A DNA stretch of 39,797 nt from positions 1 through 39,797 of the forward strand of contig CANHBA010000001.1 in NCBI GenBank assembly GCA_947458985.1, in the 5' to 3' direction. This document shows, one piece after another, positions 8,044 through 11,650 of the stretch (the first letter of the stretch is position 1; every line of letters begins with the position of its first letter). The DNA is from Flavobacteriales bacterium. Lineage in GTDB: Bacteria; Bacteroidota; Bacteroidia; Flavobacteriales_D; Crocinitomicaceae. The position numbers and the translations under genes were made by a program. The notes beneath the pieces are model-generated. The model was not told the origin of the DNA, did no database searches, and saw only the letters and a list, made by a program, of their open reading frames with translations.

Positions 8044-8906
8044 AATTGGCCTAAACTCAAGAGATGAAGGTAGCGGTTTTCACTGATTAAAAACCATAAC
8101 ATGACTGCAAAAATAGCATAGCGAGAAACAAAAGAACCCGCTACAAAAATAATATCTGCACTCGCAAAATGCCAACTGAGAAAAGGAACCAAAAAGAGTA
8201 AACTCACCCAAATTTGAGCCCAATAAAAACTGAAATGGATTGGCGTACTGAGCTCGTATAGGCCAGCATTGAAATGCAAGGCTTTGACCTGGTGCAGCCA
8301 AGGTGTTTGGATGGTACTTAAGCCCTGTACTTTTGGTAAATTTTGGCTGAGATAGTCACTGACCCAATAAGTGCGGCCGTCCGTGCTTTTGAAAAGTTGC
8401 ACCAAATGATTGTCTACGCTGCCATAGGCATGAATACCATAAGCCTGAGCTTGGATGGGCACTTGTTTGGAAGGCAAGAAGTAGTCTAGCCAAACCACAA
8501 AAAATAGGAGCAAGCCCAAGTAAGCCACAGCCTGGTGCCAAAGTCTAATTTTTCCACTTTTCAGTTGTTGAAGGTAGTTTAATTTGTAAGCTTCTTCTTT
8601 GAGTTTTTGTTGGCGGAGTTTTTCGCGGGCAGCGGCTCTTTGTTGCTTATAGGCCTCGAGGTCTTGGTCGTATTGTTGTTGGGTGGCGCGGTATTTTTGT
8701 TCTACTGCTTCAGGCTGAAGCCCACCTTCGCCATTGGTGATTTGTTCGTAGGCGGCTTGTATTTCAATGAATTTGGCGGCAGCTACTTGATTCGGGTTTT
8801 TGTCTGGGTGGTATTTTTTCACCAAAGTGCGGTAAGCCTTTCTAATGGCTTCAGGACTTGCATTTGGCTCAACGCCGAGTGTTTTATATGGATTTCCAGT
8901 CGGCAT
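8040..8906 (-). CDS. J-domain (DnaJ-like) membrane protein
   Basis: N-terminal J domain YKTLGVEPNASPEAIRKAYRTLVKKYHPDKNP with the HPD motif. A charged coiled-coil follows, then about 4 TM helices. ATGA overlap with the nth start. Confidence 0.75.
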   Translation of the reverse strand: MPTGNPYKTLGVEPNASPEAIRKAYRTLVKKYHPDKNPNQVAAAKFIEIQAAYEQITNGEGGLQPEAVEQKYRATQQQYDQDLEAYKQQRAAAREKLRQQKLKEEAYKLNYLQQLKSGKIRLWHQAVAYLGLLLFFVVWLDYFLPSKQVPIQAQAYGIHAYGSVDNHLVQLFKSTDGRTYWVSDYLSQNLPKVQGLSTIQTPWLHQVKALHFNAGLYELSTPIHFSFYWAQIWVSLLFLVPFLSWHFASADIIFVAGSFVSRYAIFAVMLWFLISENRYLHLLSLGQL

Positions 8907-9897
8907 TGCTCAAAGATTGAAGGATTTCTTTGCGTTGAATTTTGTGGGTGCTTGTGCGCTTGAAAACCTGAATGCAGGCATATTTTTTTGGTATTTCTGC
9001 ACTAGAGAGTCCGAGTCCGTCGAAATGAAGGTAATCTTTGACGATTTCGCCTTCAAAAATGATCCCGACGACTTGTCCCCATTTTTCATCGGTAATACCT
9101 GCGGTGAAGAATGGATTTTGAAAGTGACCAGCCAGTTTTTGTTCGAGGAGTTCAGGAATGATTTTGAATCCGCCGGAGTTAATAGCGTTATCGGCTCTGC
9201 CTAACCAAGTGAAGGTAGTTGAACTGTGAAGGTTGACAAGGTCTTTGGTGTAAAATGCCTGGAGTTGCATTTGTGGGTAGTGGATTACTAAGCAGTCGTT
9301 TTTTGTTGAAAATTGAATGCCGGGTAGGGCGCTGTAATGCGCAACTTCTATGGGGCTAATTTGTTGGAGTGCCACATGAGAAAGCGTTTCGGTCATGCCG
9401 TAGCTTTGCCAAACTTGGAGCCCTGCCGCACGACACGCCGCTTTCAGCACAGGCGTGAGCTCGCCTCCGCCCACTAAAATTTTAGGAATGCGCTTGAGCT
9501 GCTCGAGGTCGTGCAAGAGGCTTTGTTGCAACTGTGTGGGTACCATTGCAATAAAATCGATGGCTTGTTCGAGGTGCTGAAGTGGTCTTGAGCTAGGTTG
9601 TTGGAGGGTCAATTCAAAAGCACCAACTAGAGAACGCGCCATGAGCATTTTTGCGCCAACACTGCTCGTGGGCAAACAAAGGAGTGCTTTGGTTTGTGTA
9701 TTTAACCCTAAAGCGTCAATACTTGCTTTTGCAGAATGCAGCATTTGCGCATGACTAAATCTGAAAATTTGAGGTGCGCCGGTGGTGCCTGAACTCTGGA
9801 TTTCAAAGGTGGCTTGGGCATTCCACTGCTGCAAAAAATATTGGGCTTCTTTTTCGAGAAGTGGGTTGGGTGCTGCAAATATCCAGTTGGCCTGCAT
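8884..9897 (-). CDS. short AMP-binding (adenylate-forming) enzyme, O-succinylbenzoate-CoA ligase-like
   Basis: Motifs SSGTTGAPQ, YGMTET and GRADNAINSGGFKI. 337 aa. ATGA overlap with the stop of the dnaX C-terminal segment. The menE assignment is only by size and motif similarity. Confidence 0.6.
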   Translation of the reverse strand: MQANWIFAAPNPLLEKEAQYFLQQWNAQATFEIQSSGTTGAPQIFRFSHAQMLHSAKASIDALGLNTQTKALLCLPTSSVGAKMLMARSLVGAFELTLQQPSSRPLQHLEQAIDFIAMVPTQLQQSLLHDLEQLKRIPKILVGGGELTPVLKAACRAAGLQVWQSYGMTETLSHVALQQISPIEVAHYSALPGIQFSTKNDCLVIHYPQMQLQAFYTKDLVNLHSSTTFTWLGRADNAINSGGFKIIPELLEQKLAGHFQNPFFTAGITDEKWGQVVGIIFEGEIVKDYLHFDGLGLSSAEIPKKYACIQVFKRTSTHKIQRKEILQSLSNADWKSI

Positions 9898-10529
9898 CAG
9901 TAATCGATGTCTAGATTGAAACGATTTTTGAGTGTGTGCAGGTTCGGGTTTTTGCGAGCCAATGCAGCAAATTTGTCTTTGCCAGTAAGGAATTTGACTT
10001 CTTCTTCATCGGCGGCGGCTTGCACCAACACGATGTCTAGGTAGAAGTTGTTGAGTTGCTTGCGCATGAATTCTTTAAAGGTAAGCAGGTGGGTTTGGAT
10101 GTAATTTTGCTGAACGAGGTTGTCTACGGTAAGTTCGAGGGTTTCTTCGCCTCTCAAGACAGGGTCTCGCTTGATGAGTGCATTGTAAAAAGTTTCCATG
10201 CCATCTTCTTTGACTTGAAACGCAAATTGTTTCCAGTACATTTTGACGTGATCGAGGTGAAAGCCTTCGCGTGGGAGGTCTTCTTGGCGCACCTGTTGGT
10301 TGCTTTCTTTGTCTTTTTCGAGGGTTTCCCGAATAGAAATCATGTTGGCTTTCACGTTGCCTTGCGGCTTACTCAACTGAATTGCTGGTTCTTTTAAGGG
10401 TAGAGCAGGTGGAGCACTTGTGGTGGTGGGTGCTGCAGTTGTTGTACTCGTTGAAGGAGCGCTGTTGGTTTTGGCTTTTCGCAGTGATTGTTTGGGCGAA
10501 GGGAGGATGTCGATGCGCTCAGTTAGCCC
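9897..10529 (-). CDS. dnaX: tau-specific C-terminal part of DnaX, in the -1 frame relative to 10523..11638 (not an independent gene)
   Basis: The -1 frame is open with no stop from GGG at 10529 through the track ORF 9897..10376. It encodes a P/T/A-rich linker (PSTSTTTAAPTTTSAPPALP) followed by a folded C-terminal domain. There is no ATG or promoter box at its 5' end. Confidence 0.75.
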   Translation of the reverse strand, partial: GLTERIDILPSPKQSLRKAKTNSAPSTSTTTAAPTTTSAPPALPLKEPAIQLSKPQGNVKANMISIRETLEKDKESNQQVRQEDLPREGFHLDHVKMYWKQFAFQVKEDGMETFYNALIKRDPVLRGEETLELTVDNLVQQNYIQTHLLTFKEFMRKQLNNFYLDIVLVQAAADEEEVKFLTGKDKFAALARKNPNLHTLKNRFNLDIDY

Positions 10530-11638
10530 TTTTTTTTTTCTTGCTCTTGCTTGAGGGAGCAGAGCTGCATAAGAGCTACTTCAATGAGAAGCCGCTGGTT
10601 TTTGGAGGCTTTGTAGTCGACATCGGTTTTGGACAGCACCTGCAGGCCTCTGAGGAGTCTTTGTGCTTCAATTTCTGTTGCTTGCTGCACAAAGCGTTGT
10701 TTGATGGTGTCTGGTGTTTCGAGTAAACTTGCGGTTCTGGGGTCTTTGCAAACGAGAATGTTGCGCAGGTGTTCGGCAAGCCCAACAACGAAATGATGGC
10801 CATCAAAGCCTTTTTCGTAGATGTCGTTGAGAATGAGTAGGGCCGAAGAAATGTCTTCTTTTTCAGCGGCGTCGATGACTTTGAAATAGTATTCGTAGTC
10901 TAGGATGTGCAGGTTTTCAAGAACATCTTTGTAGGTGAGCGTGTTGCCGGCAAAGGTAACGAGCTGATCAAAGATAGAAAGGGCGTCGCGCAAGGCGCCA
11001 TCGGCTTTCATGGCTATTTGGTGCAGGGCTTCTGGGTCGGCAGAAACACCTTCTTTGGTAGCAATGGTGCTGAGGTGATCGGCGATGTCCTTGACACGGA
11101 TTCTCTGGAAATCAAAAATTTGACATCTGGAGAGAATAGTGGGGATGATTTTGTGTTTTTCCGTGGTTGCTAAAATAAAAATAGCATGCTTTGGAGGCTC
11201 TTCTAGGGTTTTGAGAAAGGCGTTGAAAGCCGAAGTAGAGAGCATGTGAACCTCGTCGATGATATAAACTTTGTGGCTGCCGAGTTGTGGCGCAATGCGC
11301 ACTTGATCGATGAGGTTGCGGATGTCGTCAACGGAGTTGTTGGAGGCGGCATCTAGCTCGTAAATGTTGAGGGAGTTTCCGGTGTGGAAGGATAGGCAGG
11401 AATCGCATTGGTCACAGGCTTCAATTTCTGATGTAGGGTTGAAGCAATTGATGGTTTTGGCCAGGATACGCGCCGTGGTGGTTTTGCCTACACCCCGTGA
11501 GCCACAAAATAAAAATGCTTGGGCAAGGTGCTGGTTTTTGATGGCATTTTTGAGTGTATTGGTAATGGATTGCTGCCCCACAACCGTGTCAAAGGTTTGC
11601 GGGCGGTATTTGCGTGCCGATACAACGAATTCACTCAT
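10523..11638 (-). CDS. dnaX: DNA polymerase III subunit gamma/tau, zero-frame product (371 aa, domains I-III only)
   Basis: Walker A CGSRGVGKTT, Zn module CDQCDSC, DEVHML and SRC motif LSRCQIF. The ORF stops 2 codons after the A10 tract. Confidence 0.95.
   Translation of the reverse strand: MSEFVVSARKYRPQTFDTVVGQQSITNTLKNAIKNQHLAQAFLFCGSRGVGKTTTARILAKTINCFNPTSEIEACDQCDSCLSFHTGNSLNIYELDAASNNSVDDIRNLIDQVRIAPQLGSHKVYIIDEVHMLSTSAFNAFLKTLEEPPKHAIFILATTEKHKIIPTILSRCQIFDFQRIRVKDIADHLSTIATKEGVSADPEALHQIAMKADGALRDALSIFDQLVTFAGNTLTYKDVLENLHILDYEYYFKVIDAAEKEDISSALLILNDIYEKGFDGHHFVVGLAEHLRNILVCKDPRTASLLETPDTIKQRFVQQATEIEAQRLLRGLQVLSKTDVDYKASKNQRLLIEVALMQLCSLKQEQEKKKG
10529..10539 (-). other. A10 homopolymer ending in an in-phase A_AAA_AAG slippery heptamer (candidate recoding or slippage site, or homopolymer miscall)
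   Basis: The minus strand reads CAA GAA AAA AAA AAG GGC TAA. The 10 consecutive A span 10539..10530. The heptamer A AAA AAG spans 10535..10529 in the dnaX zero frame. Confidence 0.8.
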
Positions 11639-11642
11639 AGCT

Positions 11643-11650
11643 CAAAGATA
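11643..11650 (-). promoter_or_regulatory. Bacteroidota -7 box TAtcTTTG, 4 nt upstream of the dnaX ATG
   Basis: The minus strand reads TATCTTTG AGCT ATG. Confidence 0.45.

Follow-up and report, generated by a model that had tools for sequence, protein, structure and literature searches.

How is the tau subunit of the clamp loader obtained when the gene that should encode it is divided between two reading frames? This question is raised by a stretch of DNA of 39,797 nucleotides from a bacterium of the Crocinitomicaceae (Flavobacteriales; contig CANHBA010000001.1), the whole of which is referred to below as the window. Its dnaX gene, on the minus strand, is interrupted at a run of ten A residues (A10), after which the part that would distinguish tau from the shorter gamma continues in the -1 frame. 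Tau is essential for the replisome, and the two halves of the gene must in some way be joined. The evidence assembled here makes us highly confident that tau requires programmed recoding, and we put at roughly 0.6 the probability that the main source of this recoding is slippage during transcription of the A10 tract.

On the minus strand the junction reads CAA GAG CAA GAA AAA AAA AAG GGC TAA, in which the A10 tract, the putative recoding site (10530..10539; T10 on the template), is followed by the frame-0 stop codon TAA at 10523..10525, just as the original prediction had it. The open reading frame (ORF) in frame 0 (10523..11638, minus strand) encodes a gamma-like protein of 371 aa with the C-terminus ...EQEKKKG, which ends two codons past the last full AAA. 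Its translation shows an AAA+ ATPase, a lid and domain III, together with a Zn module (C65/C75/C78/C81) and an SRC motif, and Pfam assigns DNA_pol3_delta2, DNAX_ATPase_lid and DNA_pol3_gamma3 to it, which correspond to DnaX domains I-III and agree with the earlier statement that it comprises these domains only. The -1 frame is open from GGG at 10529 to a stop codon at 9899..9897, providing a tau-specific coding segment of 210 codons plus stop (9897..10529, minus strand) whose peptide is identical to the one first proposed. Conceptual fusion of the two parts gives a protein of 580 aa, of the size anticipated for tau, in which the A10 tract lies at codon 367. In the DnaX equivalog model NF011531 of NCBIfam, which is of the Bacteroidota type and has 614 positions, the first ORF covers positions 1-370 and the -1 segment positions 426-614; the first ORF alone scores 674.6 bits and the fusion 740.6 bits, and only the fusion passes the cut-off of 685 bits. 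The third frame is closed by a TGA at 10519..10521 (minus strand), and the predicted product of an mRNA with nine or twelve A residues is likewise of gamma length (...KK-RAN). Overall, the proposal that frame 0 gives a gamma-length protein and that tau is reachable only by recoding is well supported. The polarity of tau is reversed relative to that in E. coli in that the templated frame gives gamma and tau lies in the shifted frame, and this inversion, which had been put forward as a peculiarity of the locus, is real here but already published (PMC3711429, PMC5009743).

Conservation of this arrangement was followed in a DNA scan of one genome per GTDB species, which retrieved 80 loci at 46-93% identity, 79 of them including the junction; the counts out of 80 given below refer to these 79 species representatives plus the window. 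The loci of the scan are labelled mostly as Crocinitomicaceae, Cryomorphaceae or Flavobacteriales and derive from freshwater metagenomes, and the nearest relative of the window dnaX, at 92.7% identity, is found in a metagenome-assembled genome (MAG) from a pond (L006). Several records bear labels such as Chryseobacterium gleum, Sphingomonadales, Polynucleobacter, Akkermansia or Chitinophaga pinensis (L009, L023, L024, L052, L057, L072, L074 and L077); these oddly labelled contigs with a dnaX of the Crocinitomicaceae type look like mislabelled or contaminated bins. The original prediction had proposed an alignment of related dnaX loci as a check, and in this alignment the tract, the stop and the open -1 continuation are conserved without exception: G followed by A10 is present in 80/80 loci (one of them with an 11th A, since the next base is A), tau lies in the -1 frame in 80/80, and the frame-0 stop is placed exactly 4 nt after the run in 80/80. 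The run itself stands apart from its surroundings. No other A/T run in the 39.8-kb window exceeds a length of 8, and 416 kb of related loci contain 203 A/T runs of length 7, 46 of length 8, 5 of length 9 and 80 of length 10, the last being the dnaX junction runs.

The sequence after the run carries further marks of selection. The frame-0 stop sits inside the tau-frame Leu-Thr codons CTA/CTG ACN, where Leu is encoded by CTA in 47 loci and by CTG in 33, whereas the other four Leu codons, which account for 80% of the Leu codons in the same genes, have 0 uses at this site. Because only CTA and CTG are used, it is the stop itself that is maintained. In addition, the third frame is shut within 3-6 codons in 80/80 loci, so that transcripts and ribosomes in either of the frames other than that of tau yield a protein of gamma length. 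On the tau side, variability at the three codon positions over the first 20 tau codons after the run is 0.156/0.105/0.475, and the best conserved part of the linker region is a tau-only motif, LTERIDILPSPKQSLRK (10476..10526, minus strand), which was delimited from the protein alignment and the junction peptides of the 80 loci and has the consensus LT[DE]xxD[IL][IL]PFPxQSLR. Distant lineages carry the variants IIPPxG (EIIPPNG), LIMPLPW and LLPKKF. This motif could be a docking peptide for a partner in the replisome. These patterns show selection on both frames and on the stop.

Against this background, explanations that need no recoding can be weighed. Homopolymers are prone to sequencing error, and an assembly or sequencing artefact would mean that the true tract is A11 and that dnaX is a single 580-aa ORF, a state that is in fact found in one case: locus L001, a 2.3-kb MAG contig, has A11 at 312-322 and a fused ORF. 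This contig is 98.2% identical to the A10 locus L014 with the sole gap at the run, and it retains the stop of the A10 frame. Either slippage at the DNA level has produced a variant strain, or the homopolymer was miscalled; in both cases A10 is the conserved state. Elsewhere the split with G+A10 recurs in all 79 independently assembled species representatives, the frame-0 stop is under selection through the restricted use of Leu codons described above, and cultured species with finished genomes have genes of the same class (PMC3711429). Moreover, a search with the -1 segment gave 370 homologues, which gene prediction almost always treats as ORFs of their own (~130-250 aa); the longer ones begin upstream of KKK, that is, of the A run read in the tau frame; these homologues carry the Pfam family PF28557 (DUF8439). 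A profile search of 1.84 billion cluster representatives likewise gave 2082 matches, the best 150 of which are nearly all short ORFs, with few fused. An artefact is therefore extremely improbable, and the alternative considered at the outset, that A10 is an undercall of A11, is excluded by its conservation in 79 species. A related possibility is phase variation at the DNA level, in which replication slippage would interconvert A10 and A11 within populations and the A11 subpopulation would supply tau. Long homopolymers are hypermutable, and the A10/A11 difference between two 98%-identical assemblies is of the kind that such a process would produce. This explanation is nevertheless very unlikely, as A10 is found in 79/79 species representatives with no mixture, the stops in both alternative frames are selected, and the heritable OFF state would not be viable without recoding, tau being essential. 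It could also be supposed that the gene is truly split, with a gamma-like subunit and a C-terminal protein, translated separately from an internal start or by reinitiation, that assemble non-covalently, or that the C-terminal part is a decaying pseudogene; gene callers do annotate two ORFs, and a TTG at 10376 could nominally start a 159-aa product. However, no ATG, GTG or TTG is present in the -1 frame upstream of the tau-only motif in 62/80 loci, so that the most conserved stretch of the linker lies upstream of any start codon there. In 18 loci the first A of the run falls within a TGA of the tau frame, the earliest potential start codon differs between loci both in its position (24-288 nt after the run) and in its type, and coding periodicity sets in right at the run. 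A pattern search on the minus strand at 10376-10560, upstream of the nominal TTG, found no TAnnTTTG box, that is, no -7 promoter box of the Bacteroidota type. Taken together, the start-codon pattern, the periodicity and the lack of a -7 box exclude independent translation of the C-terminal part as a conserved design, as had been argued for the downstream ORF before, and the strong purifying selection on the C-terminal domain across 46-93% identity speaks against a pseudogene. A split or decaying gene is thus as improbable as phase variation.

If recoding is required, either RNA polymerase or the ribosome could perform it. The tau junction peptide is ...EQEKKK-GLTERIDILP..., and the same ...EQEKKKGLTERIDILPSPK is predicted under RNA polymerase slippage and under a ribosomal shift; since both mechanisms yield an identical tau, the anatomy of the site must decide which machine slips. 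The run is followed by G in 59 of the 80 loci, by T in 17, by C in 3 and by A in 1. With a variable 3' base and the whole run kept, the conserved feature is the length of the run and not the heptamer A_AAA_AAG, which is present in phase in the window, as first noticed, but is not a conserved feature of the family. Downstream of the run, RNAalifold found no conserved pairs in 38 relatives, the 80 nt of the window fold no better than shuffles (z = -1.0), and the corresponding windows of 11 independent lineages are unremarkable (Fisher p = 0.56-0.71), which confirms the earlier impression that no convincing downstream stimulatory hairpin exists. The Rfam DnaX frameshift element gave no match up to E = 10, and the only Rfam matches were at chance level. 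In addition, A/T runs of at least 9 are nearly absent from the related loci outside the dnaX junction, and a rarity of long runs is regarded as the signature of genomes in which such runs are slippage-prone (Baranov et al., 2005; PMC1088944). The closure of both non-tau frames beside the run, which is also the arrangement in Thermus dnaX (PMC1088944), points the same way. From these features of the sequence we infer that the shift is probably the work of RNA polymerase and not of the ribosome.

A programmed -1 ribosomal frameshift, in which the ribosome would slip on A_AAA_AAG and continue with GGG CUA ACU... in the manner of E. coli with the products swapped, is the most substantial alternative to this slippage of RNA polymerase. 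The in-phase heptamer is available to it in the window and in 59/80 relatives, though the final G is replaced by T, C or A in the other 21/80, and the phase of the run is constant within the family. Such a shift would leave the conservation of the entire A10 unaccounted for, however, as the heptamer needs only 6 A's and the following base, and the site has no conserved 3' stem-loop or pseudoknot. An invariant RGAG 8 nt 5' of the heptamer has a spacing similar to that of the Shine-Dalgarno (SD)-like stimulator of E. coli, and it also forms the 3' arm of a predicted hairpin that is described below. According to published work, ribosomes of Bacteroidia do not use SD pairing, the anti-SD sequence being sequestered, and the SD-like element of prfB makes no contribution in F. 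johnsoniae (PMC13000453); an upstream stimulator of the E. coli type is therefore unlikely. A role of the invariant GAG as an SD-like stimulator was considered and rejected as the chief explanation, given that this codon is paired in the hairpin and that ribosomes of Bacteroidia have been described as SD-blind. The literature offers the ribosomal explanation some support, in that Atkins et al. (2016; PMC5009743) describe the reversed class of dnaX genes as one that seems to stem from ribosomal frameshifting and report E. coli-like signals for Chlorobium phaeobacteroides. It is opposed by lineages in which tau lies in the +1 frame at the same run, as a -1 shift would not serve these. On balance, we consider it unlikely, although far less so than the explanations without recoding, that the ribosome is the machine that mainly slips. 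tRNA genes, which were sought for their tRNA-Lys isoacceptors, are absent from the window and from 60 loci, a result that is uninformative on how slippery A_AAA_AAG is.

The lineages just mentioned belong to the wider family of dnaX genes of the DUF8439 type, whose distant members share a run of G/C+A10-11 at the junction and differ in the frame that holds tau. Tau is in the -1 frame, as in the window, in L084, L086, L087, L089 and L090. It is in frame 0 in L082 (1424-1433), L083 (980-989), L092 (474-483), L093 and L094, where the -1 frame stops after 1-4 codons and the polarity is thus that of E. coli and Thermus inside the same family. It is in the +1 frame, at an A10-11 run, in L085 (1205-1214), L088 (~402-411) and L091 (~404-414), and a +1 frame of tau is not servable by a -1 ribosomal shift. 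In the lineage of L085 (P0194 family) the split is kept in five protein clusters at 48-68% identity, the direction being verified for the L085 contig only, and a narrower scan of metagenome DNA returned only 4 loci, a number too small to bear on the conservation of the +1 type. Opposite directions of shift for the same function are the criterion by which Antonov et al. recognize transcriptional realignment (PMC3711429). The leaning of the original prediction toward transcriptional slippage is accordingly backed by three kinds of evidence, namely the variable 3' base, the lack of 3' structure and the differing frames of tau. As a separate observation, the dnaX gene of L083 seems to be broken again within its AAA+ region, a 120-aa fragment (1-267) being followed by a 454-aa ORF (301-1665); this second break is probably a sequencing error or a pseudogene.

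Structure in the RNA is predicted on the 5' side of the run. The minimum free energy (MFE) fold of the window contains a nascent-RNA hairpin of 23 nt (10543..10565, minus strand) with the 5' arm GCUCUGCU, a 6-nt loop and the 3' arm AGC(A)AGAGC, which form 8 bp with one bulge, and 3 nt separate its end from the first A of the run. Among 38 relatives, 92.8% of cells are paired in this register, compared with 35-50% for slid partners, and compensatory changes occur in two pairs (GC/AU at 45-67 and UA/CG at 51-60). The Glu codon within the 3' arm is GAG in 79/79 loci, whereas GAG makes up 25% of the Glu codons elsewhere in the same genes, an invariance that is explained by its pairing in the hairpin. 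Other lineages have unrelated sequence here, and a hairpin nevertheless occurs in the same place, abutting the run on its 5' side in most of them: the arms are GCGTC and GACGC with a spacer of 2 nt in L082, TCCGA and TCGGA with a spacer of 2 nt in L083, CTTTGCT and AGCAAAG with a spacer of 1 nt in L084, and GCTCACT and AGTGAGC with a spacer of 0 nt in L085 and L092, and the MFE fold of L088 gives a hairpin of 10 bp with a spacer of 0 nt. When the folding energy of the 24, 30 or 36 nt directly 5' of the run was ranked against all windows of the same locus in 11 lineages, the Fisher p values were 4e-6, 5e-5 and 1.6e-3, respectively. This recurrence suggests that the hairpin matters for slippage.

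Several points weigh against slippage of RNA polymerase assisted by a hairpin as the source of tau. The stems are short, only two pairs covary, and the 5' arm coincides with conserved Cys-Ser codons. The choice of register, which follows the window's own MFE fold, biases the control with slid partners, and the RNAalifold consensus of the upstream helix has 4 bp in a different register with no compensatory changes. The hairpin is weak or absent in 3-4 of the 11 lineages, and the known case of hairpin-stimulated slippage loses a base on a heteropolymer, whereas an insertion on a homopolymer is needed here. The cases with tau in the +1 frame or in frame 0 are mostly single metagenome contigs, in which an error of 1 nt in the homopolymer would change the type, and one 98%-identical pair (L001/L014) already differs by A11 versus A10. 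On the ribosomal side, the in-phase A_AAA_AAG is retained in the window and 59/80 loci at a constant run phase, and a -1 shift on it is a possible route to the identical tau. Finally, it should be noted that no experimental test of a two-frame dnaX in Bacteroidota was found in the literature consulted, that papers on translation and prfB frameshifting in F. johnsoniae yielded nothing on dnaX, and that the available part of Sharma et al. (2014) contained no usable efficiency numbers.

With these reservations, the following course of events is proposed. Faithful transcription and translation would give the 371-aa gamma-like clamp-loader subunit, and slippage of RNA polymerase on the T10 template would generate a mixed population of mRNAs. 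An mRNA with A11 (or with A8 or A14) would join domains I-III to the -1 frame and thus specify the 580-aa tau, to which the -1 frame would add the tau-only motif as well as a disordered linker that leads to a KH-like domain at the C-terminus. mRNAs with A10 or A13 and those with A9 or A12 would meet stops within 2 and 3-6 codons, respectively, and would yield products of gamma length. The nascent-RNA hairpin, 3 nt upstream of the run, probably promotes this slippage or tunes it, much as a stem-loop does in Roseiflexus IS630. The ribosome may contribute some tau by a -1 shift on A_AAA_AAG, which would not be part of the conserved design. A more far-reaching version, in which a terminator-like slippage cassette of hairpin, A10 and stops in both non-tau frames sets the tau:gamma ratio transcriptionally across Bacteroidota and relatives, so that evolution would be free to place tau at -1, 0 or +1 because slippage yields all three frames, is offered only tentatively, and we think it rather more likely to be wrong than right.

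As for the protein that the -1 frame would contribute, the tau-only motif is followed by a variable, low-complexity linker rich in P, T, S and A (10335..10475, minus strand), which falls in poorly conserved columns of the alignment and is predicted to be disordered, and then by a folded C-terminal domain (DUF8439; 9900..10334, minus strand) for which a KH-like alpha/beta core is predicted. An AlphaFold2 model of the tau-specific segment, built on 11 sequences, has a confidence score (predicted local distance difference test, pLDDT) of ~90 for residues 90-170 and indicates disorder over roughly the first 60 residues, with a pLDDT <50 for most of residues 1-60. In the PDB, the fold of the model is matched best by DnaA domain I (4tps, TMt 0.66-0.70, E 0.03-0.14) and by DciA, and tau domain V is not among the 50 fold matches listed. 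In terms of sequence, the profile of the C-terminal part gave no match in the PDB even at E = 10, and the C-terminal part had none in a copy of Pfam that predates DUF8439. According to Marsin et al. (2021; PMC8216460), a type-II KH fold is common to DnaA domain I, the N-terminal domain of DciA and DnaX domain V, and the modelled C-terminal domain is consistent with tau domain V, the link being indirect, through the shared KH-like fold, and with weak E-values (at least 0.03).

The surroundings of dnaX provide some additional observations. A candidate dnaX promoter, the Bacteroidota-type -7 box TATCTTTG, was found by pattern search and inspection of the sequence at 11643..11650 on the minus strand; it ends 4 nt before the dnaX ATG at 11638, and this closeness suggests that the dnaX mRNA is leaderless or has a very short leader. 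The pattern TAnnTTTG occurs 63 times on both strands of the window, versus 36.4 expected from shuffles, and 0/100 shuffles reach 63, an excess that is consistent with Bacteroidota-type promoters across the window. At the other end of the gene, TGATG at 9895..9899 (minus strand) makes the tau stop TGA overlap the ATG of the next gene, a 337-aa ORF (9897..8884). The same neighbour follows dnaX in L001, where the counterpart of this ORF carries the Pfam domain AMP-binding. dnaX and the downstream 337-aa gene may therefore be translationally coupled.

In hundreds of public assemblies, this type of gene is split into a 'gamma/tau' ORF and a 'hypothetical protein' or DUF8439 ORF, so that tau looks absent, and Pfam PF28557 (DUF8439) is the C-terminal, tau-specific part of the Bacteroidota DnaX. 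The gene would be among the clearest natural cases of an essential replisome subunit that is obtainable only by a programmed decoding 'error'. In addition, the three frame configurations in related lineages would make it a good system in which to study the efficiency of RNA polymerase slippage and its tuning by a 5' hairpin in Bacteroidota.

Several known systems exhibit similarities to the dnaX gene of the window, but there are also differences from each of them. The -1 cassette of E. coli dnaX, with its upstream SD-like element and downstream stem-loop, concerns the same gene and the same position at the boundary of domain III, shares with the window the same heptamer in the same phase, and likewise gives two products. 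Here, however, the polarity is the opposite, the heptamer varies among relatives, neither a 3' stem-loop nor an Rfam match was found, the host ribosomes work without SD pairing, and a 5' hairpin is predicted instead. The dnaX gene of Thermus thermophilus (Larsen et al., 2000, as reviewed in PMC1088944 and PMC5009743) likewise has a long run of A's, of 9 in Thermus and 10 in the window, which is followed by stops in the two frames that do not encode tau; its two products have their N-terminal domains in common, and the same mechanism is proposed. It differs in that its templated frame gives tau and slippage gives gamma, whereas here the templated frame gives gamma and slippage would be needed for tau. 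Furthermore, the run is placed differently in the gene, and slippage has been experimentally shown in Thermus, whereas the present case is known from sequence.

Two other systems resemble single parts of the proposed mechanism. In Roseiflexus IS630, a nascent stem-loop 5'-adjacent to the motif stimulates slippage of RNA polymerase (Penno et al., 2015, as related in section 43 of PMC5009743); the stem-loop immediately 5' of the slippage motif and its geometry, which recalls an intrinsic terminator, are shared with the window, in silico in the latter case, but a T5C5 heteropolymer loses a base there, and a homopolymer would gain one A or lose two here. In mxiE of Shigella flexneri, two overlapping ORFs are fused by transcriptional insertion at a T run and the longer functional product needs slippage, according to PMC1088944; the gene and its function are different, and the shorter product is no functional subunit there.

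The closest counterpart is the dnaX cluster found with GeneTack by Antonov et al. (2013; NAR 41:6514, PMC3711429), which comprises 17 genes from 12 genera with two adjacent ORFs and a -1 shift at the DNA level. Nine of these have A10, the site was aligned to the poly-A site of Thermus, and transcriptional realignment was suggested (PMC3711429). The members in Supplementary Figure S3 of that study include Flavobacterium johnsoniae, F. psychrophilum, Cytophaga hutchinsonii, Capnocytophaga ochracea, several Chlorobi and Coraliomargarita (PMC3711429), and Atkins et al. (2016; PMC5009743) later noted that in some bacteria it is tau that arises by frameshifting, the stop of gamma coming immediately after the site. 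Like these genes, that of the window has domains I-III in one ORF and the tau part in a -1 ORF, with an A10 junction, a nearby stop and a need for recoding to make tau, and its phylum is shared with several of the listed members; it differs in coming from an uncultured freshwater lineage of Crocinitomicaceae/Cryomorphaceae that is not in the list. Judged by its sequence, the dnaX gene of the window is a genuine conserved two-frame gene of the class described by Antonov et al. (2013), and the basic picture published in 2013 is unchanged by the present findings. The figures compiled across the family for the frame-0 stop, the closure of the third frame and the variable 3' base, the predicted 5' hairpin, and the relatives with tau in frame 0 or +1 were not found in those parts of the literature on this class that were accessible, and the 5' hairpin and the three frame configurations may go beyond its published description. 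If they hold true, hairpin-assisted homopolymer slippage in an essential cellular gene and a dnaX of the +1 type would both exceed what the accessible literature describes.

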